DNA of 63,938 nt from Candidatus Peregrinibacteria bacterium (lineage in GTDB: Bacteria; Patescibacteriota; Gracilibacteria; Peribacterales; Peribacteraceae): positions 1-63,938 of the forward strand of contig JBAWYM010000002.1 of the NCBI GenBank assembly GCA_037143575.1. The letters are read 5' to 3'. The notes beneath the pieces were generated by a model, which was not told the DNA's origin, did no database searches, and was given only the letters and a program-made list of their open reading frames with translations. Positions 8,310 to 63,229 of this stretch are shown here, piece by piece. Position 1 is the stretch's first letter. Each line of letters begins with the position of its first letter. Both the position numbers and the translations under genes were made by a program.

Positions 8310-8531
8310 AAGGAAACAGTAGGAGTTCTTTACGGATTTCCCTAACAGGGATTCTCATGAGTTGCTCACTCTTCTACAAATACCTATGATCAAAATAGGA
8401 CTTTCTATTTACAATACGCAGTTCTATATTATTGCGTAGATGAGTATCTACATATGAACCCTCACCCTACCCTCTCCCCCTGCGGGAGGAGAGGGAGCGC
8501 GGGCCGGCTCTCCCGTGAAAAAGAATGCATT

Positions 8532-9308: not shown

Positions 9309-9380
9309 AGAGGACTTCTCTCCTTCATACCTTGATGATCCACTCTTGCAGAGGACAACACAAACGGTTACACTGTGTGT

Positions 9381-9662: not shown

Positions 9663-9918
9663 ATTCACCCGCACATTTTTGAAAGACATGAAACGGTGGC
9701 GCAAGGCAGGGAAAAGCATGCAACCCTTTGAAGATTTTCTCCTCACCATCAGAGAGACGTGGCCACCTGCGCCAAAGTATGAAGCCCATGTACTTGTAGG
9801 TTCGCTCAGTGGTATTTGGGACATTCATCTGCGGCAGAATTGGATCGTTCTTGCACGGTTTGAATCCGGGGTTGTTCGGTTTTTACGAATGGGTACACAC
9901 GCGGAATTAAGCTTATAA
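9649..9918 (+). CDS. yafQ: YafQ/RelE-family mRNA interferase toxin
   Basis: 'FLKDMKRWRKAGK...HVLVGSLSGIWDIHLRQNWIVL...LRMGTHAEL' matches the YafQ pattern. It overlaps dinJ by 14 nt. Confidence 0.7.
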   Translation: MLQHEFTRTFLKDMKRWRKAGKSMQPFEDFLLTIRETWPPAPKYEAHVLVGSLSGIWDIHLRQNWIVLARFESGVVRFLRMGTHAELSL

Positions 9919-10002
9919 TACGCGGATCCATAGTCTGTCTTGAAATATGTGTACCAAAAGGGTACACTTTAGGTACTTTAAAGTATCCCTTCCCCATCTC
10001 CC

Positions 10003-10251
10003 ATGATCACCCGGACAATCGGCATCAAAGAATTTCGGCAGAACATCACGAAGCTCAGTAAGCAGGCAAAGAAGGAGAAGATGTGCTTCATTGTCATGAA
10101 TCACCAAGTGCCCATGGGGCGCTTCGAGCCGATCGATGAGGATGAGCTGATCCTGGAAAAGTTCTGGCCGGAGATCCAGAGAAGCCTTGAGCAGGCAAAG
10201 GAAGGGAAAACGATTTCATCGGCTGAACTTCGCAAACGTTTAGGATTATAA
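10003..10251 (+). CDS. Phd/YefM-like antitoxin
   Basis: The 82-aa ORF has 'IGIKEFRQNITKLSKQAKKEKMCFIVMNHQVPMGRFEPI'. It lies 8 nt upstream of a RelE/ParE toxin gene. Confidence 0.55.
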   Translation: MITRTIGIKEFRQNITKLSKQAKKEKMCFIVMNHQVPMGRFEPIDEDELILEKFWPEIQRSLEQAKEGKTISSAELRKRLGL

Positions 10252-10258
10252 TTAGGCC

Positions 10259-10525
10259 ATGCGTGTTCGCTATACCGATGAAGCAGAGCTCTGTATGAAG
10301 CGCCTTCCCAGGCATATTGCTCGCAGGATTGCAGACAAAATCGACTGGTATGCGGAGCAGAAAGTACCATTATCTTTTGCACGTCGGTTATGGGATCCGG
10401 TTGATACCCTCTTTCGTTTCCGCATCGGCGACTACCGCGCAATTTTTCGCTTGGAGGGATGCACCCTAGAAATCATCCTTATCCTTACAGTGAAGCACAG
10501 GAAAGAGGTGTATAGGGGTGTGTAA
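10259..10525 (+). CDS. RelE/ParE-family toxin
   Basis: 'FRFRIGDYRAIFRLEGCTLEIILILTVKHRKEVY' is the classic RelE/ParE C-terminal motif. Confidence 0.7.
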   Translation: MRVRYTDEAELCMKRLPRHIARRIADKIDWYAEQKVPLSFARRLWDPVDTLFRFRIGDYRAIFRLEGCTLEIILILTVKHRKEVYRGV

Positions 10526-18346: not shown

Positions 18347-18808
18347 ATGCCCGACATTCCCACACCCACTCCTTCTGTGGCTCCCGTGCCTTCGGCAACA
18401 CCTACAACCGGTGTGCCTGCTGCGCCAACAGGTCCGCACATTCTCATCGTGGAGGATGAGCGGCCGCTAGCGCATGCGCTGGAGTTAAAATTTCGACATG
18501 AGGGATTCCAGACGACGATTGCGATGGATGGTGAGGAGGCATTGAAAGTGGCGGTGGCGGGGGATTTCAAAGTGATTCTTCTGGATCTGATCATGCCGCG
18601 AATGGATGGGTTTACGTTCCTGCAAGAATTGCGCAAGCAGGGTTCCTCTTGCCCGACAATCATCCTCTCAAACTTGGGGCAGGATGAGGATAAGGAGCGG
18701 GCCAAGCAGCTCGGAGGGGTAGGGTACTTCGTGAAATCCAATACGCCGATCATGGAGATTGTGAAGCAGGTTCAATCCATTATTTCCTCCTCTTCCGCTT
18801 CATCCTGA
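18347..18808 (+). CDS. single-domain response regulator (CheY-like receiver)
   Basis: It has 'ILIVEDE', 'ILLDLIMPRMDG' and 'YFVKS'. A P/T-rich N-terminal tail precedes the receiver. Its stop overlaps the pilB start (TGATG). Confidence 0.8.
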   Translation: MPDIPTPTPSVAPVPSATPTTGVPAAPTGPHILIVEDERPLAHALELKFRHEGFQTTIAMDGEEALKVAVAGDFKVILLDLIMPRMDGFTFLQELRKQGSSCPTIILSNLGQDEDKERAKQLGGVGYFVKSNTPIMEIVKQVQSIISSSSASS

Positions 18809-20739
18809 TGGCACTATCCGATCTCGATCTTGGCCAAATTCTCCTCAATCAGAGTTACCTCTCCGAAGATGAGCTGAAGCGCACATTAGCGCTTGTAGCA
18901 GCGCGAAAAATGCCGCTTCTAGCGGTACTCTTCGATCAGGGACTCCTCACGCAGGATCTCTTCGAGAGCGCGATGGCGGAGCACTACAAGCTTCCCTTCT
19001 ATGATGTACAGGCTCACCTGCCGCCTCCCGATGTCGTGAGTACATTGCCCGAGGAAATTTCGCATATGTTCCATGCGATTGTTACGGAATATGCCGCAGA
19101 TCACGTGATCGTAGCGACGTCAGATCCCGGTATGGAACTTCTGGAACAAGCGATCCGTTTGAATATCGGGCAGAAAGAAGCGCAGATGCCGGTAAAGGAT
19201 GATGGCAAACCCAAAGAGGAAAAGAAGAGTATGACCTTGTTCTCGTTTGGTAAAAAAGAGGCTCCCAAGCGCATTCCCTTCGCTGGGTCTGTCACTTTCA
19301 CGTACTCGCCGGAGTCCGGCATCGAGGCGGCGTGGATGCACTATCGCAAGCCTCTCACTACGCGCTTCAGCGCTATTATCGAGCACGAGAAGAAAGTAGC
19401 CCCCGAAATCCTCGAGGAAATAATTAGTGATGCCATCGAATTGCGCGCTTCCGACGTGCACTTCGAACCACAGGAGAAAGTCGTCATCGTTCGCTTCCGC
19501 ATTGATGGCGTGATGCACGAAGCCGGACGCATTCCCAAGATGCACTATGAGGGCGTGGTGAACCGCGTGAAGATCGCATCCCAGATGCGCATCGACGAAC
19601 ACTTCGCTGCACAGGACGGAGCCATCCGGTTCCCCACTCCGCACGGATCCATGGATATCCGTGTCTCTATCGTGCCGATCGTCGAAGGAGAGAAAATCGT
19701 CATGCGCCTCCTTGCGTCCTACGTTCGCTCCCTCACGCTCACGGATCTCGGTTTCGCTCCCGCCTACCGGACGATCCTCGAGGATGCCGTGCATAAACCC
19801 TTCGGTATGGTGATCACGGTCGGCCCCACGGGATCGGGAAAATCCACAACGTTGAGTGCGCTCCTCAAAATGCGTAATACGCCTGACGTGAACATCTCCA
19901 CCATCGAAGACCCAGTGGAGTACAAGATGACCGGCGTGAACCACATTCAAGTGAATCCGAAGGCCAATCTCACCTTCGCCTCGGGACTTCGTGCCCTCGT
20001 GCGTCAAGACCCGGATATCATTCTCGTTGGCGAAATCCGTGACGGCGAAACGGCGGATATTTCCGTCAACGCGGCACTCACCGGGCACCTCGTCCTCTCT
20101 ACTCTTCACAGTAATGATGCCGCCACGGCTATCCCGCGCCTCCTCGAAATGGGTGTGGAACCGTTCCTCCTCGCCTCAACGCTCGAAGTCGTGGTCGGCC
20201 AGCGTCTCGTACGCCGCGTCTGTCCGCGTTGTCGCTTCAGTGTGGAGATCACAGGTACTGAAGCGCAAAAGCTCTTCCTCGGAGCACAACAATATTTCCC
20301 GGCCGATAAGAGTATCACACTCTATCGTGGCAAGGGTTGTGACGCGTGCAGCAGCACCGGATTCCGCGGGCGCATCGGCATCTACGAATTGCTCGTGGTG
20401 ACCCCGGAGATCGAAGACCTTATCGTGCATCACTCTTCGAGTTCGACGATCAATGATACCGCGCATCGCCAAGGAATGAAGCTTATGTTCGAGGATGGTC
20501 TTGATAAAGTCCTCTCGGGTGTGACGACGGTGGAGGAGCTCCTGCGCGTGGCGGCACCACCAGCGCTGGCGCTGGTGAATGTTGCATCGGTTGTGTCCCC
20601 TGCGACCCCTTCCCGCGAAACCCCGCAGGATGTTTTTCGATCCGACTCCCATGTGACAAGCTCAGAACAGGCATCCCGCGCTGGTGAAAAAAATGATAGT
20701 CATTCTCCTAACCTCCTCTATGGAAAGCACCACGATTGA
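18808..20739 (+). CDS. pilB: type IV pilus assembly ATPase (GspE/PilB family)
   Basis: It has an N-terminal T2SSE_N/MshEN-like domain, the Walker A 'GPTGSGKSTT', Asp/His boxes, and the tetracysteine 'CPRC...CDAC'. Confidence 0.9.
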   Translation: MALSDLDLGQILLNQSYLSEDELKRTLALVAARKMPLLAVLFDQGLLTQDLFESAMAEHYKLPFYDVQAHLPPPDVVSTLPEEISHMFHAIVTEYAADHVIVATSDPGMELLEQAIRLNIGQKEAQMPVKDDGKPKEEKKSMTLFSFGKKEAPKRIPFAGSVTFTYSPESGIEAAWMHYRKPLTTRFSAIIEHEKKVAPEILEEIISDAIELRASDVHFEPQEKVVIVRFRIDGVMHEAGRIPKMHYEGVVNRVKIASQMRIDEHFAAQDGAIRFPTPHGSMDIRVSIVPIVEGEKIVMRLLASYVRSLTLTDLGFAPAYRTILEDAVHKPFGMVITVGPTGSGKSTTLSALLKMRNTPDVNISTIEDPVEYKMTGVNHIQVNPKANLTFASGLRALVRQDPDIILVGEIRDGETADISVNAALTGHLVLSTLHSNDAATAIPRLLEMGVEPFLLASTLEVVVGQRLVRRVCPRCRFSVEITGTEAQKLFLGAQQYFPADKSITLYRGKGCDACSSTGFRGRIGIYELLVVTPEIEDLIVHHSSSSTINDTAHRQGMKLMFEDGLDKVLSGVTTVEELLRVAAPPALALVNVASVVSPATPSRETPQDVFRSDSHVTSSEQASRAGEKNDSHSPNLLYGKHHD

Positions 20740-21889
20740 GACACCCACACTTTCCGGCATGCCTGCAGATGCTTCTTCTCCCACGAACAAGAAGAAATCG
20801 CGATGGGTTACATTCAAGAAGAATCTCGCCTCTTTGAATAATATGGGAATGGGGAAACTTCGCAGCCTCTTCATTGAAAATGTTGCGATGATGATCATCG
20901 CGGGCTTGCCGCTCGTAGATGCGCTCCAGGCACAATTGCTCGAAACACGTTCCAAACCGATGAAGGAGATCATTCGGGCCATTACGACAGCAGTGGAGAG
21001 TGGCTCACCCCTCTGGAGAGCGATGGATGATCAGAATTTCTTCTCACCCTACGAGCTCTCGCTGATCCGTATCGGAGAGGAAGGGGGGAATCTCGCGCGG
21101 AATATGCAGTACCTCGCCGAGCAGCAGGAGAAAGATCGTGCGCTCAAGGCGAAAGTGCAGATGGCGATGATTTATCCGAGTGTCGTGTTTGTCATGATCT
21201 TCGTGCTCGTCATGGGACTTGGCCTTTTCGTTCTTCCCAATCTCGTCGGGGTCCTCATCTCACTCAACGTCCCCCTACCACTTGCGACCCGCGTTGTTAT
21301 TGCGATCTCCAAAATCTTTGAAGCACACGGGATCCTCATTGTCAGTCTGACGCTCTCCGCCGTTGTTTTCTTTTTTCTCCTCGCAAAATTCACACGATTC
21401 CGTTCGGTCTCTCAGTGGCTTGTCTATCATATCCCTGGCGTTGGTACTCTCGCGCGTGAGGCCACTATTGCTCAGTTCGGAGTGATCGTCGGTGGACTGC
21501 TCCGTGCAGGAGTGCCCCTCGTCGATACACTTTCATCGCTGGTCAATGTCACCGATATTGTCGCCTATCGCAGATTCTATGCCGAAGTCTACGAGCACAT
21601 TCTCGCAGGAGATTCATTCAGCAAAACCTTCGTTGCCATCAAGCGGACGAGCTCCCTTCTGCCGATCTCAGTTCAGCAGCTCATTATGACCGGAGAACGC
21701 TCCGGATCGCTGGCGGATGTTCTTATGAAAATCGCGGAAATTCACGATCGAAAAGCGCAGGAAACTGCGGAGAAGCTTCCCACGATTCTCGAGCCTATCC
21801 TTCTTCTCTCGATCGGAGGTATAGTCGCAACTATCGCCTTCGCGATCATTATTCCTATCTATAGCGTCGTCGGGAGTCTCGGCAAATAA
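20693..21889 (+). CDS. pilC: type IV pilus platform protein (GspF/PilC family)
   Basis: It has two GspF repeats and 3 TM segments. The start is uncertain: GTG 20684, ATG 20693, ATG 20720 or ATG 20759. The first three overlap the pilB end. Confidence 0.85.
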   Translation: MIVILLTSSMESTTIETPTLSGMPADASSPTNKKKSRWVTFKKNLASLNNMGMGKLRSLFIENVAMMIIAGLPLVDALQAQLLETRSKPMKEIIRAITTAVESGSPLWRAMDDQNFFSPYELSLIRIGEEGGNLARNMQYLAEQQEKDRALKAKVQMAMIYPSVVFVMIFVLVMGLGLFVLPNLVGVLISLNVPLPLATRVVIAISKIFEAHGILIVSLTLSAVVFFFLLAKFTRFRSVSQWLVYHIPGVGTLAREATIAQFGVIVGGLLRAGVPLVDTLSSLVNVTDIVAYRRFYAEVYEHILAGDSFSKTFVAIKRTSSLLPISVQQLIMTGERSGSLADVLMKIAEIHDRKAQETAEKLPTILEPILLLSIGGIVATIAFAIIIPIYSVVGSLGK

Positions 21890-21933
21890 TTTTCCACAGG
21901 AACAATTTTCTCTCTGTCTTTCCCCTTCATCTC

Positions 21934-24900
21934 ATGGACTCCATACTTTCCGCAACATTCTCGCAGGAGCTCGCACATTCTGCTATTTCCAGAAAAGCAG
22001 AAAGGCATCCATCTTCGCCTGCAGGCTTCTCCGGGCGAGGAGAGAACAAACCTGCAAAGCGGTCAGGGTTCACTGCCGTCGAGACGCTACTCACCATCGG
22101 AATCATTGCCGTGACATCGGGGATTATTGCTCCTCTCTATCGCAGTTACGTCGTACGTTCTGATTTAGGGATCGCCGTGGAACAGACGATGCAGGCACTG
22201 TCCCGTTCTCAAATATTGTCCCGCTCGGGGCTGGAGAATGCGACGTGGGGATTTGCTGTTGCCGAAGGCGTGCTCTTTAGTGGAGATGGGTATCCTGTAC
22301 GCGATGTGGAATTCGATGAATCCTATCCTCTCCCCAAATCCATTCGCGTGTCCGGACTCACAGAAGTGACGTTCCAACGTGTGACCGGGATTCCTAACCA
22401 GACTGGAGACATCATCTTCACTTCGAACTGGAGCCTAGAACAGCGCATCCTTACCGTCTCGGCAGATGGGACGGTTGTGGCTTCCGGCCTCATCCCCCCT
22501 CCGATCACACCCGAGAATATAATCGATAGCGATCTCCATAATGCCTCCGAGGCGGCTAGCGCCTCTTCCGCCTCTTCCGCCATTGCCTGTAATGTGAATG
22601 CGTGTGCCGGCGGTGCTCCTGGGGGGTTGCCCGTCTCCTGTAATGATGGGACATTCTCCGGTGCGATCTGTGTACAGATTGCTGACGGTGTGTGTGGTTG
22701 GACATGGAGGGATTGCCCTAGCACCATTCCCTTTTCCCCGATCTCGTCTTCCTCTGCGGGCATGGAGCAGAGTACAGCGATATCTTCTTTCTCGGCATAT
22801 TATGCCTTGGCATCTTCTTCATTGGGGGGAGCAGGGATCTCCTCTCAGGTTTCTTCTGTTGCGGGTTCCAGCCAGGGCTATGTGGAGAGTGGACTCCTTT
22901 GTGGAGAGAGTTTTCATCTCTGGAATGATGGTACCATCGAGCTCTCCGAAACTGTCGATACGTCGGTGGAAGTCCTCGGATCCGCTTTTACGTTCATGAA
23001 TGGCAACTTCGTCACAAATTTCTTTGCTGCGGCGGGGGGAGGAAACTCCATGATCACCGTATCTGTAAGTACGGATGGAGGGCATGTATGGGCATCCCTC
23101 TTCCAAGGAGACTCTCTCGCCAGAGGGCAGACGGATACCATCGCAAATCTCCCCTCCGGAACGCAGATCGTCTTCCGGGTGAATGGTCGACAGGGATGGC
23201 TCTTCGGCAAATCCTTCAAATCCAATGATCACCTTGGTCATATTCTTCTCCTCCGTAATGGAGACAGTCTCCCGGATGTTGATGCTATGCAAAACAGGGC
23301 GGCTCTTCCCGCCTCTCTTCGTGCTCATCTGGATAGTAGCGGTAAGATTGCCATCGATGAAGATCAGGTCCTCTTGCTTGCGGAAATTGGGGGCCTGTCG
23401 AAGAGTTCTGCAGATTTCAATGATGCGATGCTTCTCATCCGTTTCGCGGTGAAGCCCGGGAGTTGTGTTGCTGTCGACGACCCCAAGTTCTCCGTCAACT
23501 TCGAACGCGTAGAGAATATCAGTGGGGATTTGGGGCGGAGCACGTACGTCGGGAACAAAGGGATAGTCTTCGCCGATGGGCAATGGATACCCCTCGCGAC
23601 AGCCGGTGTGGACAATATTGATTTTGCTCCGCTACTGGAGGCTGTTCCAGGCTTTGCAGCAGAGAGGTTGGCCGGTGGTACAGTGCGTGTTCTCCTCCAT
23701 GGATCGCATCTCATGGGCAAGGAGATTGCCGATGCCCGTATTGTTTTCGCAGGAGCGACGATCACGGGGATCGAAAATGACACAGGCATCCATCAATTGG
23801 AGAATCCCTTCGACGGCATTGTCAATGATGGCGTAGGAGGAGATGAAGCCACGCTCGCTTCTGACCATCAATCTGTCCTGCTGCAGAGCCGTGTGATGGG
23901 TGAGGATGATGCCCTACTCATTCACTGGCAGCGATCCCTATCCGGGAACAGTAGTTCAGCGGGGTCTGCGGTTGCTGCAGATGGTGCGGAGCCGGATGCC
24001 TGTGCCGCAGCATTCATCCGCGATAGCCGCGGGCGTATTGTTCTGCAGGAGAAGGCCGATGTTCGCTTCTCCATTCTGGGTTCTCATGCACTTTTCGGCA
24101 CGACGGGGAACTCCGCACATATCCGGCTTCGCGCGAGTGTCGACGGCGGAATTTCTTGGAGGTACCTCTTCAGCTACTTTGATATTGTGTCAGGGGATCA
24201 AGAGACCCTGAGAGATGTCCCCGCACAATCCGTGATCACACTCGATGCTGAGGAGCGGTTCGCTACGCTCTTCAAAAAGACCGCACAATTGGGAGATATC
24301 GAGGGAAGAATCCGTGCGTTCCTTCCCGGCGAAACTCTCCCATCGATTGGCCTCCTCACTTCGCCTAGCCAATTACAATCATTCTTGAGTAGTATGCTGG
24401 AAAATGGGAAGGTGAAACACCTGCCGCAGCGTTCACTCCTTCTCCTTGTAGAGCTTCAGAGCCTCGATGGAACGGCGGATTTCCAGGATGCCGTCGTACT
24501 CGTAGATATTACCAAGCCCATCAGTGCAGGTGGATCTTGCGCAGCGGCGGTTACAGAATCCTCTTCTTCATCCTCATCCCTTGCTGTAGGGAGCGCGGCA
24601 TCACTGCCTTCCGCATCATCGATCCTGATATGCCACTTCCCTCCCAGTAATCCTTCGCAAACCGAGGATCTCCGTATCGAAACATCAAGCTGGGCGACAC
24701 ACGCCGCGCATGGTGACCATCGTGGTGCGTGCGCAGGGGATGATGATGGCGATGGCGTGACTAATGCTGTGGATCTGTGTCCGGGAACATATATGCCCGA
24801 AGGGACTCCTACCGAGAGTATGCTGGAGGGCCGGTATGCGGTGACGGGTGTAAGCAATGTGTTTACCACCGGTCCGCGCAATCGTACGAGCCCATATACC

Positions 24901-25086
24901 CTCCGCGATACCTACGGATGCACGTGCGAACAACTTATTGATGTCGCTGAGAGCAAAACAATGTATTATTTTGGACAGCATCCCTCTCTCCTTCAGCAGC
25001 TACGTGGCCTCTTCCCGTACTACACGCAGGGTGCGCAGCAGTATGGTTGCGGGAAAACACTGTTAGAGCTCTTTGGAATATTGTAG
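21934..25086 (+). CDS. giant type IV pilin-like protein (class III signal + ~1000-aa extracellular region)
   Basis: 'KRSG|FTAVETLLTIGIIAVTSGIIAPLY' is a prepilin cleavage motif followed by a hydrophobic helix. The rest has Ser-rich linkers, a Cys-rich module, two copies of a ~190-aa domain, and a 'DDDGDGVTNAVDLCPG' TSP3-like Ca-binding motif. Confidence 0.7.
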   Translation: MDSILSATFSQELAHSAISRKAERHPSSPAGFSGRGENKPAKRSGFTAVETLLTIGIIAVTSGIIAPLYRSYVVRSDLGIAVEQTMQALSRSQILSRSGLENATWGFAVAEGVLFSGDGYPVRDVEFDESYPLPKSIRVSGLTEVTFQRVTGIPNQTGDIIFTSNWSLEQRILTVSADGTVVASGLIPPPITPENIIDSDLHNASEAASASSASSAIACNVNACAGGAPGGLPVSCNDGTFSGAICVQIADGVCGWTWRDCPSTIPFSPISSSSAGMEQSTAISSFSAYYALASSSLGGAGISSQVSSVAGSSQGYVESGLLCGESFHLWNDGTIELSETVDTSVEVLGSAFTFMNGNFVTNFFAAAGGGNSMITVSVSTDGGHVWASLFQGDSLARGQTDTIANLPSGTQIVFRVNGRQGWLFGKSFKSNDHLGHILLLRNGDSLPDVDAMQNRAALPASLRAHLDSSGKIAIDEDQVLLLAEIGGLSKSSADFNDAMLLIRFAVKPGSCVAVDDPKFSVNFERVENISGDLGRSTYVGNKGIVFADGQWIPLATAGVDNIDFAPLLEAVPGFAAERLAGGTVRVLLHGSHLMGKEIADARIVFAGATITGIENDTGIHQLENPFDGIVNDGVGGDEATLASDHQSVLLQSRVMGEDDALLIHWQRSLSGNSSSAGSAVAADGAEPDACAAAFIRDSRGRIVLQEKADVRFSILGSHALFGTTGNSAHIRLRASVDGGISWRYLFSYFDIVSGDQETLRDVPAQSVITLDAEERFATLFKKTAQLGDIEGRIRAFLPGETLPSIGLLTSPSQLQSFLSSMLENGKVKHLPQRSLLLLVELQSLDGTADFQDAVVLVDITKPISAGGSCAAAVTESSSSSSSLAVGSAASLPSASSILICHFPPSNPSQTEDLRIETSSWATHAAHGDHRGACAGDDDGDGVTNAVDLCPGTYMPEGTPTESMLEGRYAVTGVSNVFTTGPRNRTSPYTLRDTYGCTCEQLIDVAESKTMYYFGQHPSLLQQLRGLFPYYTQGAQQYGCGKTLLELFGIL

Positions 25087-28596: not shown

Positions 28597-29298
28597 TTAC
28601 TGCCTGGCATTCAAAATCAGCTTCTGGTTCCATCCCTCTTTGCCTCCGAGCGTTGCCCCAAGCCGCTTCATGGGCGCCGTTTCATACGAGAGCTTCTTCA
28701 GCCTCTCTCCATTATTGACCGGTAAGGAAGCGAGAGTTTGCTCTATGAGATCAATGAAATCATGAATGTAGGAAAATTGCAGGTCGAAAGATTTGCCTTC
28801 GAACAGGCTTCTGTAGACGTACATATTCTTATCGAATGGACCAAAATTATGCCGTACGTACGATAGATTGGAGAGTTGGAATCCAAGATTGTTCACTGCT
28901 TCCAGGTCGACGAAATACGGTAGCTTCATGAATTGCATAATGTCCCAATTCCAACTCAGCTTCGATCCGATATACGCATACAACTCAAATGTCTTTCGAT
29001 CGATGTTATCAGACAAAAGGTAGTCTCGATCGATTTCCAGCGCTGCTGCCAGCTTGTCATAGAGCTCTATGCCAATGCCGCTTGCCGGTGCGTACGATGC
29101 ATTTTCAAGCTCACTGATAATCCTCTGCGTCGTCCCGGCTTTCTCGGCAAGTTCACCCTGCGAGAGGCCAAGATCCTTCCTGCGGCCGTAGACTTTCTCC
29201 GCAAGCAGAATCATCCGCTTGTGGTGAGCAGATTTGGCACGGAAGCTCTCCGATCGCATGACTTTAGAGAGCTTGGAGGAGAGGGGGGAGGGGGTCAT
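28597..29298 (-). CDS. XRE-type HTH fused to a Panacea (DUF4065/SocA-like) antitoxin domain
   Basis: The HTH is 'LGLSQGELAEKAGTTQRIISELEN'. The C-terminal part 'MKLPYFVDLEAVNNLGFQLSNLSYVRHNFGPFDKNMY' resembles the DUF4065 core (KLLY..D....G.pl.......GP....y). Confidence 0.6.
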   Translation of the reverse strand: MTPSPLSSKLSKVMRSESFRAKSAHHKRMILLAEKVYGRRKDLGLSQGELAEKAGTTQRIISELENASYAPASGIGIELYDKLAAALEIDRDYLLSDNIDRKTFELYAYIGSKLSWNWDIMQFMKLPYFVDLEAVNNLGFQLSNLSYVRHNFGPFDKNMYVYRSLFEGKSFDLQFSYIHDFIDLIEQTLASLPVNNGERLKKLSYETAPMKRLGATLGGKEGWNQKLILNARQ

Positions 29299-34959: not shown

Positions 34960-35044
34960 CCAATTTGTCACAGTGAGCCGCGTCGAACTGCGACAAATTG
35001 GGCTCTGGCTTCGAGTCATGGTTCGACGCGGCTCACCATGACAC
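34960..35044. repeat. two adjacent hairpin repeats with the conserved core GTGAGCCGCGTCGAAC in opposite orientations
   Basis: The two hairpins are 'ccaatttgtc acagtgagccgcgtcgaactgc gacaaattgg' and 'gtcatggttcgacgcggctcaccatgac'. The cores at 34973..34988 and 35021..36 are exact reverse complements. Confidence 0.75.
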
Positions 35045-35196
35045 AATCAAGAGTTCAAGGTTTCCTAGGCATTATCAACAAGTCCGCGCGAAGCCCTTCG
35101 ACATGCTCAGGACAGGCATCGCGCGCTAGGTTTCGTGATGGTGCCCCCTTCCCCCCACCTCCCAAAAATGCTATACTAATCAGAAATCCACATCAT

Positions 35197-35571
35197 ATGC
35201 CTAGTTCGACCCCGCTCACTACAGGCCAAACACAAACCACCACCTCGGTCGTTCCTATGCTCCCTTCCTCCGGGCAGGAAGTGTACGACATGATCATGCG
35301 AGAGATCGAGCCCGATCTGGTGACAGATCAAATTGAGCTCATGGGAGAGAAGTACAAGGATGAGACGCCCGAGCAGAAGAAGGCCCGCGGCGAGCGCTAC
35401 CAGAAGGCTTTCGCAGAGTACGACGTTCGCTATGCGCAGTACCTCACCGAGCAGCAGACCATGGTCCATTCCTTCAAGCGCAATCTCATCGCGTCCGTCG
35501 AGAGGAATTCCAGCGATGATGATCAGGCCAAAATTGACTCCCTGGAGTCCGCTTTCTCCACTACTGCATGA
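35197..35571 (+). CDS. hypothetical protein (first gene of a coupled pair)
   Basis: The start is uncertain (ATG 35197, 35257 or 35290), and the first codons after 35197 translate a repeat copy. The stop overlaps the next start (ATGA). Confidence 0.4.
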   Translation: MPSSTPLTTGQTQTTTSVVPMLPSSGQEVYDMIMREIEPDLVTDQIELMGEKYKDETPEQKKARGERYQKAFAEYDVRYAQYLTEQQTMVHSFKRNLIASVERNSSDDDQAKIDSLESAFSTTA

Positions 35572-37328
35572 TGCGCAAACACCCTTCATTATTCGGCGAA
35601 CAGCGACTATTGTTCTTTGTTGAGGTTCCCAAAGCTCAAGTCGAAGAGATGAAAGATGTCGCAGGAAAGGCGGAAAAACAACTACTGGCGGGATTGCCCG
35701 ATAAGCCTGAACTTGCCATTCAGATACAACAATTCAAAATCGATGCCGCAGAAAATGATGGGGCTAAATTAAAGGCATCATTCGAAGCGGGCATGAAGTC
35801 ATTGGCACAAGCTTTGTTTGATAAAGATAAGGCTTCTGCATCGACCGTAGCTGAATTAACCTCTCTGGCCGCAAGAGTCCAAGGGAAAATGGAGGCATCG
35901 AATGCGCCGGTGACGCTCAACGTAGATGCGGTGACAAAAAATCTGACCATTGGAGTGGGGGAAGTCCGCTATCTCACCCCTGAGACGGCGAAAATGATAG
36001 AAGATAATCTCCCCGGCTGCCCAGAGGATATGCTTCGTGCGATTAAAGAAGCTGCGAAGGAAGCTGTGCCCGGCTCGCGAATTCTCGAAGGGTTCACAAA
36101 TTTTTCAGCGGCGATGCGGGCAATCCCGCTTGAACATAGAGTGTTGGCGCTTCTCGTGCTTACTGGGAAGAAAGAGAGTAGAGATATTAAAGATACGGCG
36201 ATACAAGGGAAGGTGGATTCTTTCGTCGCATACTGCAAGGGAGATACAGGCGTTCAACAGCTCATGAAGAAGGTGCGTGGAAAATTTATGTTGATCAAAG
36301 GAGAGGAGAATGCAGAGAAGCGGAAAGATTCTGATGCAAAGATCCCTGGTCATGCCCTTGGGCTTTGTAAGAACTTCGATGAAAAACCAAATCCGACTCA
36401 AGCAGACAAGAATCTCATGCTCGCGAAGCTGATGATGGCGGGGGTAGACGTGAGTAATGAGGCAGCAGTCTTCGATAAGAAGCTTTCTCCGGAAGCGCGC
36501 TTCCCGCCGCTGCAGGGGGATGCGTTCGATCTCGCACTGAACAAGGCAATGGGTGCCCTCTCCTTTTTGGCCAATCTCTATGAGCAGGTGCAGGGTGTTG
36601 TCCAGAAGCCCGGAGAAAAGAAAAAGGAAGCCGCAGCAGCGAAGGCTGCCGAGTCGGCTGGCTCCGCTCCTGAGGATGCCACAGTAACTGCCCAAAGAAC
36701 AAAACTCTTGGGCGAAATGAAGGTTGCTCCAGGCACATCTGTTGATGCATATATTGCAGCTAAAGAAGGCCTGCAGGGAACAAAGCAGAGGGAAGTGGCT
36801 GGCAAAGAAGGAGATGTCGTTACGAAGAAGGGATTGGCCGCCGCAGCATCTGCAACGCCTGCTGATACAGCCGCTCTCGCCACCGCCGAAGCAACCCTGT
36901 CAAAAGCGCAGAAAGAGCTCAAGGAGCTCACCACTGATGTTGATCAGTTGAAATTGATGAAGACTGGCGCCGAACAATCCAATAAAGATATCCGGGAAAA
37001 TGTCGATGCTCTTCGGACTCTTCTGGCAACGGATCTCGTAAAGGATCGCGAAGGGGCTTCGGCACTTGCAGAGTTTTTGAAAGGCCTTGGTTGCTCTCTT
37101 ATCCTACCAGTTGGATTGGAGTTGAAAATCAGCGCTTCCGGCGGCGTTCCTTCGTTAGTGAATATGGGGAAGTTCAATAATGTGGTTCTCAGCCAATTGA
37201 AGAAAGATCCTGGCGGGGTGATCACCTTTGATGCATTGGGGAATGTCACGAGCAAGCCCGAAGATTTCGCCAGCGCTCTTAAGAGCTTGAGAGCCCATTA
37301 CATCGCAGAATCTGCGAAACCAAAATAG
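35568..37328 (+). CDS. hypothetical Ala/Lys-rich protein (586 aa)
   Basis: It is a long intact ORF, probably largely helical. I see no TM segment, signal peptide or recognised domain. Confidence 0.5.
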   Translation: MMRKHPSLFGEQRLLFFVEVPKAQVEEMKDVAGKAEKQLLAGLPDKPELAIQIQQFKIDAAENDGAKLKASFEAGMKSLAQALFDKDKASASTVAELTSLAARVQGKMEASNAPVTLNVDAVTKNLTIGVGEVRYLTPETAKMIEDNLPGCPEDMLRAIKEAAKEAVPGSRILEGFTNFSAAMRAIPLEHRVLALLVLTGKKESRDIKDTAIQGKVDSFVAYCKGDTGVQQLMKKVRGKFMLIKGEENAEKRKDSDAKIPGHALGLCKNFDEKPNPTQADKNLMLAKLMMAGVDVSNEAAVFDKKLSPEARFPPLQGDAFDLALNKAMGALSFLANLYEQVQGVVQKPGEKKKEAAAAKAAESAGSAPEDATVTAQRTKLLGEMKVAPGTSVDAYIAAKEGLQGTKQREVAGKEGDVVTKKGLAAAASATPADTAALATAEATLSKAQKELKELTTDVDQLKLMKTGAEQSNKDIRENVDALRTLLATDLVKDREGASALAEFLKGLGCSLILPVGLELKISASGGVPSLVNMGKFNNVVLSQLKKDPGGVITFDALGNVTSKPEDFASALKSLRAHYIAESAKPK

Positions 37329-37371: not shown

Positions 37372-39039
37372 TTAGTTCGCTGTTTCGGCTATGCACCTCT
37401 CGCACCAAACCTGCATATCCGTATCCGCCGGGTACGTGGTGATCATGTCGCTGCCACACTTGGTGCACTTCCCCGTGCGCAGTTTGCAGGGATTCTTGGC
37501 CTTCAGCCGTGCATCGTATCGGCAGTCTGGGCAGCAGACCGGGAGCGGGATTTTCCTCTTACGGTAGACCGTCAGCTCTTGAGCGACGATCTTGTAATTC
37601 TTCCCGCATGTCGTGCACCTGAGCAGTTCCTTCGTGACGTCATCCTGCACCTGGTCGATGGTATCGGGGACAGAGTAGATCTGATCTTTGGGATTGCGGG
37701 GCTCATCCTGGTGCCAACGGTAACCACGCTCTTTTGCCTGTGCTTCGGTGAGCGGATACTGTTCCTGTGCCGCCGTTTCGTTGTAGGCGAAGAGCGCGCA
37801 GGAAGCCGGGAAGAATTCTCCCCACTCTTTGGTCGATCGCATCTGTGCGATAATTTTGGGCAGGAGGGCGGCATAGTCTTTTTCGGAATACTGCGTATTG
37901 AGAATGCAGTGAGACGCAGACTTGAGCCCAACGGAGCCGAAGATATCTTTCGAGGAATTGATGAAGAGGGAATAGCGAATCTGCTGGCAATTTGATGTTC
38001 GGCCACAGAATTGCACATCGTAAGAGGCCGCCCCGGAAGTTGTTTCGTAGAGCAGCTCGCTGTTTCTCCCGCCCGTATAGGCATCCATCGAATCGCGGTA
38101 CAAATTCACATCCCACAAGTACCGTCCGTCCGAACTGTCGAGCGTACCGAAGCATTGATGACAATTTTTGCAGTGCAGGAGGTTGTCGCCGGTGACGTTT
38201 TCACATTGGGCGTTCGTCAGTGCCCTTCGTACCGCCTTCTTGCGAATATCCCGGTACATTTTCTCCGCCAGTTCCACCATATGTCGTGAGCCGAAGTTGA
38301 ACTCCTTCAGTCGTGCTTCGTATTGTTCTTTGGTGAGCTGTTCATTGAGGAAGCAGAAGCGCTTATTGCGAAGGTTGCAGCACATGAAACAGTCCATGCA
38401 GGAGTGGCAATCGAGGAGGAATGCCGATGTCGCGCAGTGCGAGCAGGAGAAGAGAAAGCGGCTATCCTGGCATTCCACGCAGTCGACGCACTCGTAGAGG
38501 AAGGAGGATTTCTTGACCTGTGTACAGTCCACACAATCGTTGCTCCGGCTGCCGTGATAGGTGTAGAGCATGTCCTGCGATTGATGGGTGCGGGAGCAGA
38601 GGTAGCAATTGCTGCACTCGCGCATGTCGCTGTTGAATTCGCAGTTTTCGGAGAGCTCGACGCGCAGTGATGGAAGTGGGATTTCGAGGAGGAAATTCCT
38701 GAACTGTTCGAAAAATGGTTTGGAAAAATCGTATGGTCGGCCGTAAGCGAATGGGTCAAATTTATCACCGTACCAGTAATCCTTCTCGCAGACCTTGAAG
38801 GGTGAATCCGGGGAGAAGACCGAGACGATATCCTTGCCGGTGACGTCACATTTGCGGCGGTAAAGATGATGCTCATTGCGAAAGGCCATGCGGCGCTGTT
38901 GGCGACAGTCGGGGCAGAGGGTGGGCGGCGGGAGCGGTTCTTTCTTCCCCGCAATCATTGGCGAAAGCTTCTCGAGGAGGGCGAGATCATCGGGGAGGAT
39001 CTCGAAGGAGAGGCGGCAGTGGGGGCAGGCTTGGGGCAT
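37372..39039 (-). CDS. large cysteine-rich protein with N- and C-terminal zinc ribbons (paralog B)
   Basis: The 555-aa ORF has 'CPHCR...LSPMIAGKKEPLPPPTLCPDCRQQRRMAFRNEHHLYRRKCD...PFFEQFR'. This aligns with roughly half of its positions identical to 6624..8309. The C-terminus has 'CTKCGS-x17-CERC'. Confidence 0.8.
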   Translation of the reverse strand: MPQACPHCRLSFEILPDDLALLEKLSPMIAGKKEPLPPPTLCPDCRQQRRMAFRNEHHLYRRKCDVTGKDIVSVFSPDSPFKVCEKDYWYGDKFDPFAYGRPYDFSKPFFEQFRNFLLEIPLPSLRVELSENCEFNSDMRECSNCYLCSRTHQSQDMLYTYHGSRSNDCVDCTQVKKSSFLYECVDCVECQDSRFLFSCSHCATSAFLLDCHSCMDCFMCCNLRNKRFCFLNEQLTKEQYEARLKEFNFGSRHMVELAEKMYRDIRKKAVRRALTNAQCENVTGDNLLHCKNCHQCFGTLDSSDGRYLWDVNLYRDSMDAYTGGRNSELLYETTSGAASYDVQFCGRTSNCQQIRYSLFINSSKDIFGSVGLKSASHCILNTQYSEKDYAALLPKIIAQMRSTKEWGEFFPASCALFAYNETAAQEQYPLTEAQAKERGYRWHQDEPRNPKDQIYSVPDTIDQVQDDVTKELLRCTTCGKNYKIVAQELTVYRKRKIPLPVCCPDCRYDARLKAKNPCKLRTGKCTKCGSDMITTYPADTDMQVWCERCIAETAN

Positions 39040-39115
39040 TACTGAGGGAGATTACGGGAATACAGGAATACAGGGGGATTTTAGCCGGACTCTCCGTTCG
39101 GTGAAATCTCCTCTG

Positions 39116-39475
39116 CTACAGATGCTCCGCAGGCTCTTGCATTACCGTGGCGGTAACAGGAGCGGGGGCCGATGGGATTACGGTAACTGTTTCCGTGTCT
39201 GATGACGACGCTCCTTTGAACTTGGCTACCACTATTGTCGCACCGCCGCCGGCCAGAAGGCCCTGTATGAGATTATCGACGGGGGCAGAATTCTTGAGGA
39301 GGACGAAGCCGAGGACGCCTCCGATGAGGAGGGAGGTGAGCTGCTTCATGCGGCTGCGCTCGATGGGGAAGGCCGAGAAGATCGCCTCGCAGAGGAAGAA
39401 CGTGAGGACGGCGATGTACGCCGCATCACCGTTGAGGTACTTGCCGAGGACGCTGGTGAGGAGGGAGGAATCCAT
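39116..39475 (-). CDS. small membrane protein (holin-like by context only)
   Basis: The 119-aa ORF has 2-3 hydrophobic segments and a Ser/Thr/Pro tail. It lies immediately downstream of the amidase gene on the same strand. Confidence 0.4.
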   Translation of the reverse strand: MDSSLLTSVLGKYLNGDAAYIAVLTFFLCEAIFSAFPIERSRMKQLTSLLIGGVLGFVLLKNSAPVDNLIQGLLAGGGATIVVAKFKGASSSDTETVTVIPSAPAPVTATVMQEPAEHL

Positions 39476-39536: not shown

Positions 39537-40355
39537 TCATCCCTGTATCCCATGATGACTGCGCAGGTGCCGCGCGAGGACGGTTGCCAGTTCCGCACGC
39601 GAGACCGGTCGCTCCGGGTGAAAGAGGCCGTCTGCCGACATCTGGAAGAGCCCCTCGCGGAGGCAGAGCTTCACATCCTCGCGGTACCAGGCGAGCGCGG
39701 GGAGATCGGTGAAGGACGTGGGTGGAGTGGCGGGGCCGTGGAGAGGTGGGAGGGAGCATTGCACGCGGATTGCCCTGTGCAGTCCGTCGACGATTTTCTC
39801 CCGCAGAGCGGCATCCGTCAGAACTTTGGCGTCGAATTCATTGGAGAGGAATCCTGCCTCGAAGAGACATCCGACGCACAGGGTGTCATCGAGGATCCCG
39901 AGTCTTCCCCAGCGGTTGTCGGAGGAGATGAGCGCGGGTCGCGAACGCGGTGGGAGGCCGGTGGTGGTGGCGACCTGCTCGACGAGCGTCTTGGCGAAAT
40001 CGATCATCGTCGGGAACCTGGGGGAGTACCACGCTTCCAGCCCCCGAGCCGCTGGATCGGAAGCGGCATTCACGTGGATCGACAGGAGTAGCGCGTCCTC
40101 AGACTTCCACTGGTTCTCCTGACAGAGGATATTCACTTCTTTGATGTGATCGATGAGCATCAGCCGCTCATCCACACTCACTTTGATGATTTGTACCCCC
40201 CGAAAGTCCGGGTCCGCCGACAATTGCCCAGCCAACGACTGCGCCATCGCTACCACTTCCTTGCGCTCGGTCGTTCCGTTCCCCGCTGCACCATTATCGA
40301 TGCCCCCCGTGGGTCCCAGTCCGTGGCCGGCATCGACGAAGATTGCTTTGATCAT
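39537..40355 (-). CDS. N-acetylmuramoyl-L-alanine amidase (Amidase_3) with a C-terminal SLH domain
   Basis: The Amidase_3 motifs are 'IFVDAGHG', 'LLLSIHVNAA', 'GLEAWY' and 'CLFEAGFLSN'. The C-terminus 'FTDLPALAWYREDVKLCLREGLFQMSADGLFHPERPVSRAELATVL' is an SLH motif. Confidence 0.8.
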   Translation of the reverse strand: MIKAIFVDAGHGLGPTGGIDNGAAGNGTTERKEVVAMAQSLAGQLSADPDFRGVQIIKVSVDERLMLIDHIKEVNILCQENQWKSEDALLLSIHVNAASDPAARGLEAWYSPRFPTMIDFAKTLVEQVATTTGLPPRSRPALISSDNRWGRLGILDDTLCVGCLFEAGFLSNEFDAKVLTDAALREKIVDGLHRAIRVQCSLPPLHGPATPPTSFTDLPALAWYREDVKLCLREGLFQMSADGLFHPERPVSRAELATVLARHLRSHHGIQG

Positions 40356-40636: not shown

Positions 40637-40723
40637 GCCGAGGTGGCGGAATTGGTAGACGCGCCAGCCTTAGGAGCTGGTCCGCTTATGCGGTTGGAGG
40701 TTCGAGTCCTCTCCTCGGCACCA
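40637..40723 (+). tRNA. tRNA-Leu (anticodon UAG), class II with long variable arm, CCA encoded
   Basis: I folded the cloverleaf by hand. The acceptor is GCCGAGG/CCTCGGC, the anticodon stem is CCAGC/GCTGG with loop CTTAGGA, the variable stem is CCGC/GCGG, and the T-arm is GGAGG-TTCGAGT-CCTCT. The 3' end is ACCA. Confidence 0.9.
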
Positions 40724-60635: not shown

Positions 60636-61211
60636 ATGGCACAGCGTCATTACGAACAGCACGGCACGTTTCACATCACGACGAATGCGAAGGGGAGAAT
60701 TCCGTGGTGTACGTTGCCGGGAGTTCCGGAGATAGTGATCGATAATTTGGTGATGACGAAGAATTTGTATAGGGCGGAGGTGTTTGCGTTCTGCATATTG
60801 CCGGATCATGTGCATATTGTGATGAGGCCGGGGGAGAAGGGGGTGAGTGCGTTCATGCATTCGTTCAAGCGGAACAGTTCGAGAGATGTTCATGCTTTGA
60901 TCGGGGCCCGTCACCGTAGCTGGGGTTCGCGAACCCCAGCTACGGTGACGGATGGCGAACATCATTTGAGAGTTGTTCATGAACCCCACCTGCGGAACGG
61001 GCGGGATTCCACATTTCATTGTGATCAAATCCGTTGGCAAAACGGCTTCCACGACGAACACATCCGCGACGCCACCCAACGTTCCGCTGCCCTCACCTAC
61101 GTCCAATACAACGCCTGGCGCCACGGTCTCTGTGCCGATCCGGAGGGCTGGCCGTGGTCATCGTTGCGATATGCTCACCTGATGGACCCACTGGAAATCT
61201 GGTTCGATTGA
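60636..61211 (+). mobile_element. rayT: REP-associated tyrosine transposase (RayT / IS200-like Y1 HUH enzyme) gene
   Basis: It has 'FHITTN', the HUH motif 'PDHVHIV', and the C-terminal 'YVQYNAWRHGL...WPWSS'. About 40 extra residues between HUH and Tyr are encoded by REP-like DNA. Confidence 0.7.
60911..60948. repeat. 38-nt perfect REP-like palindrome (GTAG/CTAC) inside the rayT ORF
   Basis: 'tcaccgtagctggggttcg|cgaaccccagctacggtga'. It differs from the hppA terminator palindrome at stem positions that are changed on both arms. Confidence 0.8.
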
Positions 61212-62233: not shown

Positions 62234-63229
62234 TCAGGAAAAATTGTATTCCGATGGAGCGAAGAACTTTTCCACGAGTCTGCCTGCATCGATGGCATCG
62301 CCCAATTTCTTCAGATAGATCTCGTGGGTTTTCACGAATTGATCGACCATGAATTTGTAGAAATGCTCCGGTCTTCCCTCCATTCTTTTGGCGAATGCCG
62401 TCATGTGCTCCACACGCTTTTTGTTCCAGACAATCATCGGATGATAGCGATGATCCTTGAGAATGCGGTTCATGATCAATCTCCCCGTTCGTCCGTTGCC
62501 GTCGATGAACGGATGAATGCGCTCGAAATGGTAATAGAAATCGAATGCGAACATCGGCGGATACATCTTCCCCTCATTCTTCCTGTACCACGCGAAGAGC
62601 TCCTTGAGCTTCTCTTCAATCGATTGCCACTGGGCTACCGGAAGGTTATTCACCACCACTTCCTCCGATCGTAATCCCTGCTTTACCGGTTCGTGCCCCA
62701 GCAGGATTTTGTGCAGCTCCACGACGCTTTTGGGAGTGAATGCAAAGAAATCGCTGTCCACGTAATGCAGAGCCTTGAGCGTATTTCTCACTTCTTGGCT
62801 GACGTTCTCCGACGGCCTCTTCACTTGCTCCTCTACCTGCTTGAATGGGACTTTGCTCCCTTCGATCTTGTTGGAGTTGTAGATGAAATCTACACGGAAA
62901 TTCTGCTCCATCAAGTCCAGACCGATTGTTCCAATTTCCTGTTTCGACCTCAGTAGAGAAGTTCGTAGCTCCTCAATGCTTCTGATCGATACGTATTTGA
63001 AGAATTCCTGATGCGTTTCTTTGCCTCCCCAATATTTGCTCCGCTCAACAGCCTCCTGATTTTTCAGATATTCGGCGAACTCTTTCTTGCGGATGGAAAC
63101 CAATGCCAGATCATCGGGCCTGCCAAGAAGCTTTTTCTTCTGCACACTTTTGCCCTTCGTCACGAAGATGCTGTCATACGCATAGAGGTACTTGTGGCCG
63201 TTAATATTGCTGATGTACGTTCTGAACAT
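62234..63229 (-). CDS. Fic-family protein
   Basis: The Fic motif 'HPFIDGNGRTGR' is HxFx(D/E)GNGRxxR. The ORF is 331 aa. Confidence 0.8.
   Translation of the reverse strand: MFRTYISNINGHKYLYAYDSIFVTKGKSVQKKKLLGRPDDLALVSIRKKEFAEYLKNQEAVERSKYWGGKETHQEFFKYVSIRSIEELRTSLLRSKQEIGTIGLDLMEQNFRVDFIYNSNKIEGSKVPFKQVEEQVKRPSENVSQEVRNTLKALHYVDSDFFAFTPKSVVELHKILLGHEPVKQGLRSEEVVVNNLPVAQWQSIEEKLKELFAWYRKNEGKMYPPMFAFDFYYHFERIHPFIDGNGRTGRLIMNRILKDHRYHPMIVWNKKRVEHMTAFAKRMEGRPEHFYKFMVDQFVKTHEIYLKKLGDAIDAGRLVEKFFAPSEYNFS

Follow-up and report, generated by a model that had tools for sequence, protein, structure and literature searches.

The DNA analyzed here, called the window in the following, is a stretch of 63,938 nt from a Candidatus Peregrinibacteria bacterium (contig JBAWYM010000002.1). 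It contains two genes for cysteine-rich zinc-ribbon proteins, copy A and copy B, and copy B is the main subject of this work. Both belong to a protein family of Patescibacteria with the domain order N module, M1, M2, linker and C module, for which we use the newly coined label F. The open reading frame (ORF) listing confirmed the positions and lengths of the two genes as given in a preliminary description of this DNA (Table 1); they are 29,063 nt apart, in agreement with the distance of about 29 kb reported there. The window has the gene content of an ordinary chromosome of the candidate phyla radiation (CPR), with recR, dnaN, mfd, uvrB, aspS and serS as well as genes for an H+-PPase and for type IV pili.

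Table 1. Features of the window related to copies A and B (pLDDT, predicted local distance difference test; residue numbers refer to copy B)
Feature	Position	Strand	Remarks
Copy A	6624..8309	-	561 aa; member of family F, orthogroup other than that of copy B
TrmB-family helix-turn-helix (HTH) regulator X	8454..9308	+	divergent from copy A; Pfam TrmB, E=4.3e-08
Copy B	37372..39039	-	555 aa; intact ORF; F family 'B' orthogroup; solitary, outside any array
N module of B, zinc ribbon (treble-clef-like)	38755..39039	-	residues 1-95; C5/C8/C42/C45; basic CPDCRQQRR..RNE; pLDDT 88-94
M1 of B, first Cys-rich beta-solenoid-like domain	38335..38667	-	residues 125-235; ends ...CFLNEQLTKEQY
M2 of B, second beta-solenoid-like domain	37885..38229	-	residues 271-385; homolog of M1; ends ...CILNTQYSEKDY
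Conserved linker of B	37645..37833	-	residues 403-465; (E)WGEFFP...FAYNETxAQEQYPLT...GxxW; pLDDT 84-96
C-terminal double zinc-ribbon module of B	37375..37644	-	residues 466-555; C475/C478/C503/C506 and C525/C528/C546/C549; homolog of the N module
Putative sigma-70-like promoter match	39078..39105	-	TTCACC-16-TAAAAT; within the 76 nt between the 119-aa gene and B; consensus scan
119-aa small membrane protein	39116..39475	-	three hydrophobic segments; weak holin PHROG match, E=0.009
Amidase_3 + SLH cell-wall amidase	39537..40355	-	Pfam E=1.8e-22 and 1.1e-07; PHROG 435 endolysin, E=4.6e-21

Copies A and B and the architecture of the F proteins

BLASTP aligned B with A along their entire length, with 215 identities in 565 positions (38%), 58% positives and E=2e-140. 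This end-to-end match supports the claim that the two copies share their whole architecture, and it is far above what generic CxxC spacing produces. The identity over the first ~125 residues, judged by eye to be about one half, amounts to 55% for residues 1-95 and 48% for residues 96-124. Among the blocks listed as common to both copies, PPPT.CPDCRQQRR, LYRR.CD, PFKV and PFF(D/E)QFR were recovered, but the block LSPM(V/I)AG was not, since A reads VSPMVAG at this place. The C-terminal CTKCG...C..C block is found in both proteins; the second ribbon of copy A lacks three of its four Cys (CEVTG.../CPDRR). Using a hidden Markov model (HMM) of the family, only A and B were detected in the window, B with 860.8 bits (E=2e-260, HMM positions 2-554) and A with 742 bits over the whole HMM.

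Orthologs in other genomes are 58-69% identical to B and 60-69% identical to A, and the remaining family members reach at most 46% to either copy. P0002 at 77% and P0004 at 68% are listed as the nearest orthologs of B. These separate ortholog sets agree with the earlier suggestion that the protein has diversified and was not recently duplicated, and on this sequence comparison A and B are assigned to two different ancient orthogroups. The dN/dS comparison that had been proposed as a check gave a proportion of synonymous differences (pS) of 0.70-0.82 for A versus B and for each ortholog pair, and a dN of ~0.23-0.25 against the orthologs. As the synonymous sites are saturated, it shows no more than dN << dS, and the ratio itself is uninformative. 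Judged by its sequence, copy B is a full-length, selectively maintained F member, and the A/B pattern appears to be one of stable subfunctionalization and not of an arms race.

A search for internal similarity using hhalign revealed two duplications. Residues 1-93 matched residues 471-554 (N against C module) with a probability of 99.7% and E=4e-26, and residues 120-250 matched residues 269-398 (M1 against M2) with a probability of 99.9% and E=3e-33. The F architecture therefore consists of N module, M1, M2, a conserved linker and C module, a predicted pseudo-symmetric arrangement in which homologous zinc-ribbon ends flank the homologous domains M1 and M2. The terminal modules follow the motif CxxC...FY...PxPxxCPDCRxxRR...RxCxxxGKxI...PDxPxxVY, and M1 and M2 both end with C(I/F)xNxQ(Y/L)(S/T)KEEY. 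The M1 domain of B contains 17 Cys in CxxC(xxC) groups, 12-15 residues apart, and a near-invariant run C211-x2-C214-x2-C217-x2-C220. Near-invariant columns of the linker are E405, G407, E408, F409, F410, P411, Y419, N420, T422, A424, P429, G439 and W442. All invariant or near-invariant residues of the family are kept in B, including C5, C42, R46, R50, Q112, D171, D319, C378, N381, Y384, G407, C475, E488, R507 and R511.

With 41 Cys, copy B is close to the family median of ~39, which corresponds to ~7% of an F protein, and its isoelectric point (pI) of 7.05 compares with a family median of 6.2. For the F proteins, B included, neither a transmembrane (TM) or hydrophobic segment nor a signal peptide was predicted, which makes them most probably soluble, cytoplasmic proteins. 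Since M1 and M2 would thus be located in the cytoplasm, their Cys more likely bind metal than form disulfides.

AlphaFold2 (AF2) modeling of B with an alignment of 86 sequences resulted in a pLDDT of 83.6 and a predicted template-modeling score (pTM) of 0.87. The whole model found no match at E<4 in the PDB using Foldseek, and against BFVD it gave only local zinc-ribbon matches of ~43 residues. Modeled in isolation, M1 and M2 reached pLDDT values of 84-92, with 84-90 for M1, and consist of short strands with a period of 5-12 residues. Foldseek searches with this M1-M2 model returned right-handed beta-helix and pentapeptide-repeat proteins exclusively, but the matches were weak (best E=8.6e-4, template-modeling scores <=0.18, probabilities <=0.28, root-mean-square deviation ~17 A). 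Because of E-values near 1e-3 and the very low template-modeling scores we call both domains beta-solenoid-like, without claiming membership in that fold. The model shares short strands and Cys groups every 12-15 residues with beta-helix and solenoid proteins such as AlgE4, the P22 tailspike and the pentapeptide-repeat DNA mimics MfpA, Qnr and AlbG; sequence similarity of M1-M2 to beta-helix or pentapeptide-repeat proteins was not found. A Cys-laddered solenoid with a 12-residue repeat is known from the Tenebrio antifreeze protein.

No Pfam or NCBIfam model covers F. The central 280 residues gave nothing meaningful against Pfam up to E=10, and the sequence-profile search of the PDB produced a single match, LIM-like, of 30 residues with E=0.003. 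The closest known domains are zf_Tbcl (PF13451), zf_Tbcl_2 (PF23477) and TIGR04272, described as 'probable treble-clef' with the spacing CxxC-x17-CxxC. The termini of F share CxxC...(F/Y)xI...FY...PxPxxCPxCR with them and match them weakly: the C module of B scored 18.5 bits on PF13451 (cutoff 24), and copy A 24.4 on PF23477 (cutoff 27) and 18.2 on TIGR04272 (cutoff 36), all of them below the threshold. Precomputed matches to PF13451 or PF23477 are attached to some F homologs. These domains comprise ~40 aa and have no assigned function, whereas F contains two ~90-aa copies that flank ~370 aa not covered by any model. One F protein (P0183, 731 aa) carries an N-terminal GNAT acetyltransferase domain of ~180 aa and could be a genuine fusion protein or the product of two genes called as one; as a single case and a possible gene-calling artefact it was set aside as a hint to function.

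Occurrence of F genes, their arrays and their neighbors

Comparison of B with 5.8 billion proteins identified 1,545 homologs at E<=1e-5, all from Patescibacteria/CPR and all named "hypothetical". They belong to Peribacteraceae and to Peregrinibacteria, Gracilibacteria, Uhrbacteria, Paceibacterota, Nomurabacteria and Abawacabacteria. An exhaustive profile search of 1.84 billion representatives recovered no fewer than 2,495 clusters (50% identity level) at E<=1e-30, and the best 150 representatives all aligned end to end (~545-600 aa). In species-representative genomes at least 594 stretches match F. On these searches, F is a very large family that is confined to Patescibacteria. In 2.9 million viral contigs it is essentially absent, with one partial match only. 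Residues 139-380 of B (37900..38625, minus strand; M1-M2) resemble phrog_15341, a group of unknown function, at E=0.003 (positions 36-267 of 276). A phage origin of F was rejected in view of the one partial viral-contig match and this marginal similarity.

For the analysis of gene context we assembled 159 non-redundant F loci from species-representative genomes, metagenome contigs and exact-protein look-ups. Two or more F genes are present in 107 of them and a single copy in the other 52; the largest array comprises 11 F genes in 22 kb (L047). Adjacent F genes lie on the same strand in 219 of 224 pairs, with a median gap of 18 nt. Translation with table 11 splits the F ORFs into pieces of ~100-330 aa in L089-L092, L112, L130, L132, L142, L147, L149 and L162-L164, and copy counts in these loci are therefore unreliable. 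The fragments are consistent with lineages that recode UGA (genetic code 25, Gracilibacteria/Absconditabacteria).

The 398 full-length F proteins of the fetched loci fall into 163 clusters at 52% identity, and among 396 genes only 14 are same-cluster duplicates inside an array. The arrays of most related genomes are thus composed of distinct, anciently diverged orthogroups encoded on one strand, and those of A and B are met with repeatedly in different genomes. Members of an array share 36-57% identity in the terminal modules and the linker stretches, compared with 22-38% for M1, M2 and the helix between them.

Unsupervised clustering of all genes flanking F in these loci revealed two neighbor clusters, X and V, as the sole recurrent partners; no other cluster is present in more than five loci. 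X is a TrmB-family HTH regulator of ~252 aa, present in 45 loci and adjoining and divergent to F in 30. V is an ATPase of ~747 aa that was found in 28 loci, and in 17 of them it directly neighbors an F gene of the same orientation at a distance of 1-262 nt. The canonical order is X on the minus strand followed by one or several F genes and V on the plus strand (e.g. L024, L018, L063, L166). Five further loci were fetched via V, and four of them contain 2-4 F genes within 10 kb and three contain X. The preliminary description had suggested amidase or holin-like genes as possible recurrent neighbors of the Cys-rich protein; X, which adjoins copy A, and V were not noticed in it. In one case (L169:1805-17358) a cluster of F, X and V lies beside genes for Fur, ferredoxin, NiFe hydrogenase and a radical-SAM maturase-like protein.

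V carries DUF8128 together with the signatures T4SS-DNA_transf, TrwB_AAD_bind and TraG-D_C, and like the type IV coupling proteins (T4CPs) VirD4, TraD and TrwB it contains Walker motifs. It is a remote relative of TraD, VirD4, TrwB and CedD, with scores far below the curated cutoffs and TrwB as the best PDB match (E=0.003). In contrast to the coupling proteins, V is soluble and has the DUF8128 N-domain in place of TM helices: no TM helix was found in the array-adjacent V proteins of ~747 aa. Longer variants of the V cluster with 825-910 aa (L056, L079, L059, L015:3971-6520) have an N-terminal TM helix in two of four cases, and their genes never directly adjoin an F gene. A search with V gave 2,750 matches at E<=1e-10, and the homologs listed have ~745 aa and are mostly 54-60% identical across classes. 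Unlike canonical coupling proteins, V is not located beside virB4, relaxase or other genes of type IV secretion systems (T4SS); neighbor clustering of the 159 loci showed no recurrence of T4SS channel or relaxase genes near F arrays. One B ortholog has PrgI and TraC-like genes at a distance of 5 kb, the only such case. In these properties V matches the 'orphan' T4CPs of a 2025 survey, which counted 5,713 T4CP homologues in Patescibacteria, only 148 of them near virB4, and which states that orphan homologues may be 'exapted for other functions', an exaptation that "cannot be ruled out" (PMC12102498). Cys-rich arrays are not mentioned in that survey.

As far as our searches show, the F family and the X-F-V neighborhood are undescribed in the published literature. 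Inquiries using the domain names, DUF8128 and zinc-ribbon paralogs of CPR yielded nothing on F. A high cysteine content of the proteome has been noted for a Peribacteria genome and ascribed to large proteins (PMC4736985). The 'cysteine-rich protein cluster' of that study was considered as a possible equivalent of F and rejected, because the proteins in its Table S4 have a mean of 1,655 aa and most of them a predicted signal peptide.

Context of both copies and other features of the window

The regulator gene divergent from copy A matches 29 members of cluster X in phmmer searches (down to E=3e-19) and belongs to this cluster, so that copy A retains the conserved divergent X/F arrangement. Its ORF begins at 8454, but the homologs start at the equivalent of M27 (8532); the intergenic region between A and X is therefore probably 222 bp long and not 144 bp. 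Copy B is solitary in the window, without an array and without X or V adjoining. No k-mer of at least 9 nt is common to the gap upstream of B and the A-X intergenic region, and hence there is no evidence that B stayed in the X regulon. The context of array, X and V is typical of F but not defining, and B shares its single-copy state with the 52 loci mentioned above.

Copy B is preceded on the same strand by the genes for the amidase and the 119-aa small membrane protein, with gaps of 61 and 76 nt, as had been described before. From this run the preliminary description derived a possible functional link to remodeling of the cell envelope; read in this way, B would be the last gene of an operon for envelope remodeling or lysis. 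The consensus scan detected no terminator-like site between the three genes, which would fit such an operon, as would the endolysin similarity of the amidase and the weak holin similarity of the 119-aa protein. The comparison of loci argues against it. In none of the 159 F loci does a homolog of the amidase or of the 119-aa protein adjoin an F gene. In phmmer searches, no match to the amidase, the 119-aa protein or the flanking unknown proteins of the window occurred among the first 82 loci; among another 79, the 119-aa protein had no match and the amidase a single one, more than 5 kb from the F gene. The same result was obtained for five contexts of B orthologs (P0003, P0009, P0011, P0019, P0008), none of which has an amidase or holin-like neighbor; the gene is located beside DHH/enolase genes, beside a GDSL lipase gene, inside a 9-gene array, in an array with V, or directly upstream of V.

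The converse comparison points in the same direction. The 119-aa protein has five homologs, and in the two with a readable context (P0391, P0392) its gene lies downstream of an SLH-bearing gene, which encodes an intact Amidase_3+SLH protein in P0391 and a 107-aa SLH-only ORF with no recorded amidase match in P0392. The gene that follows the small membrane protein there encodes 125-130 aa and is not an F gene. In addition, F proteins lack a signal peptide or TM segment, and their recurrent partners are X and V and not wall enzymes. The proposed link to envelope remodeling is thus not supported by conserved synteny, and we consider an amidase operon with B as its last gene highly improbable. From the sequence comparisons, the amidase and the 119-aa protein are judged to be an independent module apart from copy B and the F system, and the place of B behind the small membrane protein is apparently specific to this lineage and coincidental. 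The pair itself looks like a lysis cassette or an autolysin module. It is similar to holin-endolysin pairs in combining an Amidase_3/endolysin PHROG protein with a protein of three hydrophobic segments, a resemblance that concerns these neighbors and not B; the holin match is marginal, however, the SLH anchor of the amidase is typical of cellular autolysins, and there are no other phage genes nearby.

The promoter-like match in the gap upstream of B could be a promoter of its own. In the scanned region two such sites were found, compared with 1.7 expected by chance. Just downstream of this site, the 76-nt leader of B contains TGTATTCC twice as a tandem direct repeat (39057..39072, minus strand). 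The sequence runs that hold the locus are three in number, all of them DNA metagenomes from lake water. At a distance of 281 nt from its start, the amidase gene is separated from an ORF for a 157-aa protein with several TM segments by a tRNA-Leu gene (anticodon TAG; 40637..40723, plus strand). On the other side, two overlapping ORFs of 177 and 586 aa (35038..37328, plus strand) run towards B, the stop codons being 43 nt apart; Pfam, NCBIfam and PHROG gave no match for them, and no homolog was found in the fetched loci.

The window contains several other genes. Genes for a type IV pilus prepilin peptidase, a PilB-like T2SSE ATPase and a PilC-like T2SSF protein are located at 1268..2029 and 18808..25086 (plus strand), 10-17 kb from the F copies and unlinked to them; behind them lies a gene for a protein of 1,050 aa with a weak repeat of the thrombospondin type. 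In the region 9375..10525 four small ORFs (82-95 aa) form two overlapping or adjacent pairs, 9375..9662 with 9649..9918 and 10003..10251 with 10259..10525, which look like toxin-antitoxin pairs. Further genes encode an HTH_3 + SocA/Panacea antitoxin-like protein (28597..29298, minus strand), an IS200-type Y1 transposase (60636..61211, plus strand) and a Fic/DOC protein (62234..63229, minus strand).

Possible roles of the F proteins

Our statements on the identity and the context of copy B and of the F family are made with high confidence; their interpretation is less secure. The best overall explanation, to which we assign a probability of about 0.55, is that copy B is a displaced member of F and that F comprises diversified partners of V under the control of X. 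The recurrent, tight linkage of F arrays and V on the same strand and the dedicated divergent regulator suggest that F works with V. According to this explanation, the F paralogs would be partners of the V ATPase, either clients or adaptors, that have diversified in specificity. The terminal zinc modules and the linker would form a common part for docking or scaffolding, and the more variable beta-solenoid surfaces would recognize a protein or nucleic-acid target specific to each paralog; the higher identity of the terminal parts compared with the solenoids fits such a division. X would control the expression of the F system. Copy B has been relocated behind a pair of genes, for the amidase and the small membrane protein, that are unrelated to it, and it probably still acts in the F system in trans, from its own promoter and with no functional tie to the amidase. 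The mechanism may take one of three forms, in which F proteins would be cargo or effectors handed to a secretion machine, target adaptors for the ATPase, or nucleic-acid-binding loaders. The mechanism itself, with F as partner of V, is put forward with low confidence and may well be wrong.

Several points weigh against this explanation. The adjacency of genes is not proof of a physical interaction of F and V, one V locus (L167) contains no F gene at all, and V is present in ~18% of the sampled loci, many of which are short or truncated contigs. There is no V gene in the 63,938 nt of the window. The near-neutral pI of the F proteins does not favor simple nucleic-acid binding, and the docking and specificity roles are deduced from a modest difference in sequence conservation. 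Since promoter-like sites such as the one in front of B are about as frequent as expected at random, B may also be co-transcribed with the amidase run.

The signatures of V allow a reading in which F proteins are secreted effectors and V is a coupling protein that passes them to the T4SS or another envelope machine of Patescibacteria and thereby into host cells. A gene next to that of a T4CP often codes for one of its clients. The F arrays abut an ATPase with TraG-D_C and TrwB_AAD_bind signatures, and in the consensus most F proteins end with a conserved tail, ...CYLxEVY. Proteins rich in zinc sites are poor substrates for unfolded secretion, however; V has no canonical T4CP membrane anchor, T4SS structural genes do not recur near the arrays, and the F orthogroups are stable across genera with 58-69% identity and not fast-evolving. 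Published data can be quoted on both sides: CPR bacteria live as epibionts and cannot grow on the host without their T4SS, and T4SS-linked arrays of VirB2 pilin paralogs are already known among them, but in S. epibionticum the T4CP homologue is non-essential whereas other T4SS genes are essential (PMC12102498). The VirB2 arrays resemble those of F as tandem arrays of 2-11 strongly diverged paralogs tied to T4SS-type machinery. The two differ in their products: VirB2 pilins are membrane proteins of small size that are secreted and whose genes lie near virB4, while F proteins are soluble zinc proteins of 555 aa encoded near a T4CP-like gene. On balance the effector reading seems unlikely to us.

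A second reading of the same neighborhood regards F proteins as binders of specific nucleic-acid sequences or structures, with a separate target for each paralog. They would load or guide V, and V would translocate DNA or RNA in the manner of FtsK, HerA or TraD; uptake, processing and segregation of DNA are examples of processes in which this might happen. The nearest families of V, namely TraD, TrwB and CedD, are DNA-translocating ATPases, treble-clef ribbons often bind nucleic acids, and invariant pairs of Arg follow the CPDC knuckle at both termini (R46/R50, R507/R511). A dprA gene product, DprA, is encoded near one array (L007). The overall pI of ~6.2 does not fit well, as the terminal modules alone are mildly basic; neighbor clustering gave no recurrent nuclease, relaxase or helicase gene nearby, and the central domains resemble beta-helices, which are more often DNA mimics or binders of proteins and glycans than readers of sequence. 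We rate this possibility as rather improbable, too.

The many Cys of the family, arranged as CxxC pairs and CPxC knuckles, could also point to a function in storage or buffering of Zn or Fe or in thiol redox buffering, possibly with rubredoxin-like Fe(Cys)4 chains, and the link to V would then be incidental. The cluster L169 with its adjoining Fur, ferredoxin and hydrogenase genes is in line with this idea. On the other hand, Cys sites of the second ribbon and of M2 have been lost in whole orthogroups, residues other than Cys are invariant (R46, R50, Q112, D171, D319, N381, Y384, E488, R507), and the regulator is TrmB-like and not Zur or Fur. As storage proteins, the division of F into so many clusters and its arrays of distinct orthogroups would remain unexplained, and such a function is very unlikely. 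We give still less credence to X-F-V as a defense island against phages or other mobile genetic elements, with a motor of the HerA/FtsK type and variable F proteins as sensors. ATPases of the superfamily of V do occur in defense systems, and variable paralogs are present in the arrays; the orthogroups are conserved, however, the widespread family has a vertical-looking distribution, V is 54-60% identical across classes, and there is no nuclease or other effector domain, with the limit that no search of the PADLOC defense library was made.

With F proteins as partners of V, a wider interpretation can be proposed, which we regard as speculative and as less likely than not. The partners that the 'orphan' T4CP homologues of Patescibacteria seem to lack would be supplied by the F arrays. 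Together they would form a system of X, up to 11 anciently diverged multi-zinc F proteins with beta-solenoids and a new fold, and a soluble hexameric ATPase resembling coupling proteins. In this system the F proteins would either be exported towards the host or act as exchangeable adaptors that confer specificity on the movement of protein or nucleic acid, and copy B, as a dispersed member, would still contribute to it.

For the annotation of CPR genomes the locus demonstrates that function should not be read from adjacency on one strand in a single genome, as in the case of the amidase and copy B, before the synteny has been compared with that in other genomes. The scale of the family is considerable for bacteria with genomes of ~1 Mb: up to 11 genes of 1.7 kb are devoted to F in one 22-kb stretch, and they encode a predicted fold without a match in the PDB. 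With their recurrent, operon-like linkage to TrmB-like regulators and to a subfamily of soluble T4CPs, the F arrays offer a concrete and testable candidate partner for the orphan T4CPs (PMC12102498). If this interpretation is correct, X, F and V would constitute a previously undescribed three-component system, in which the F arrays are the partners of thousands of orphan T4CP homologues.

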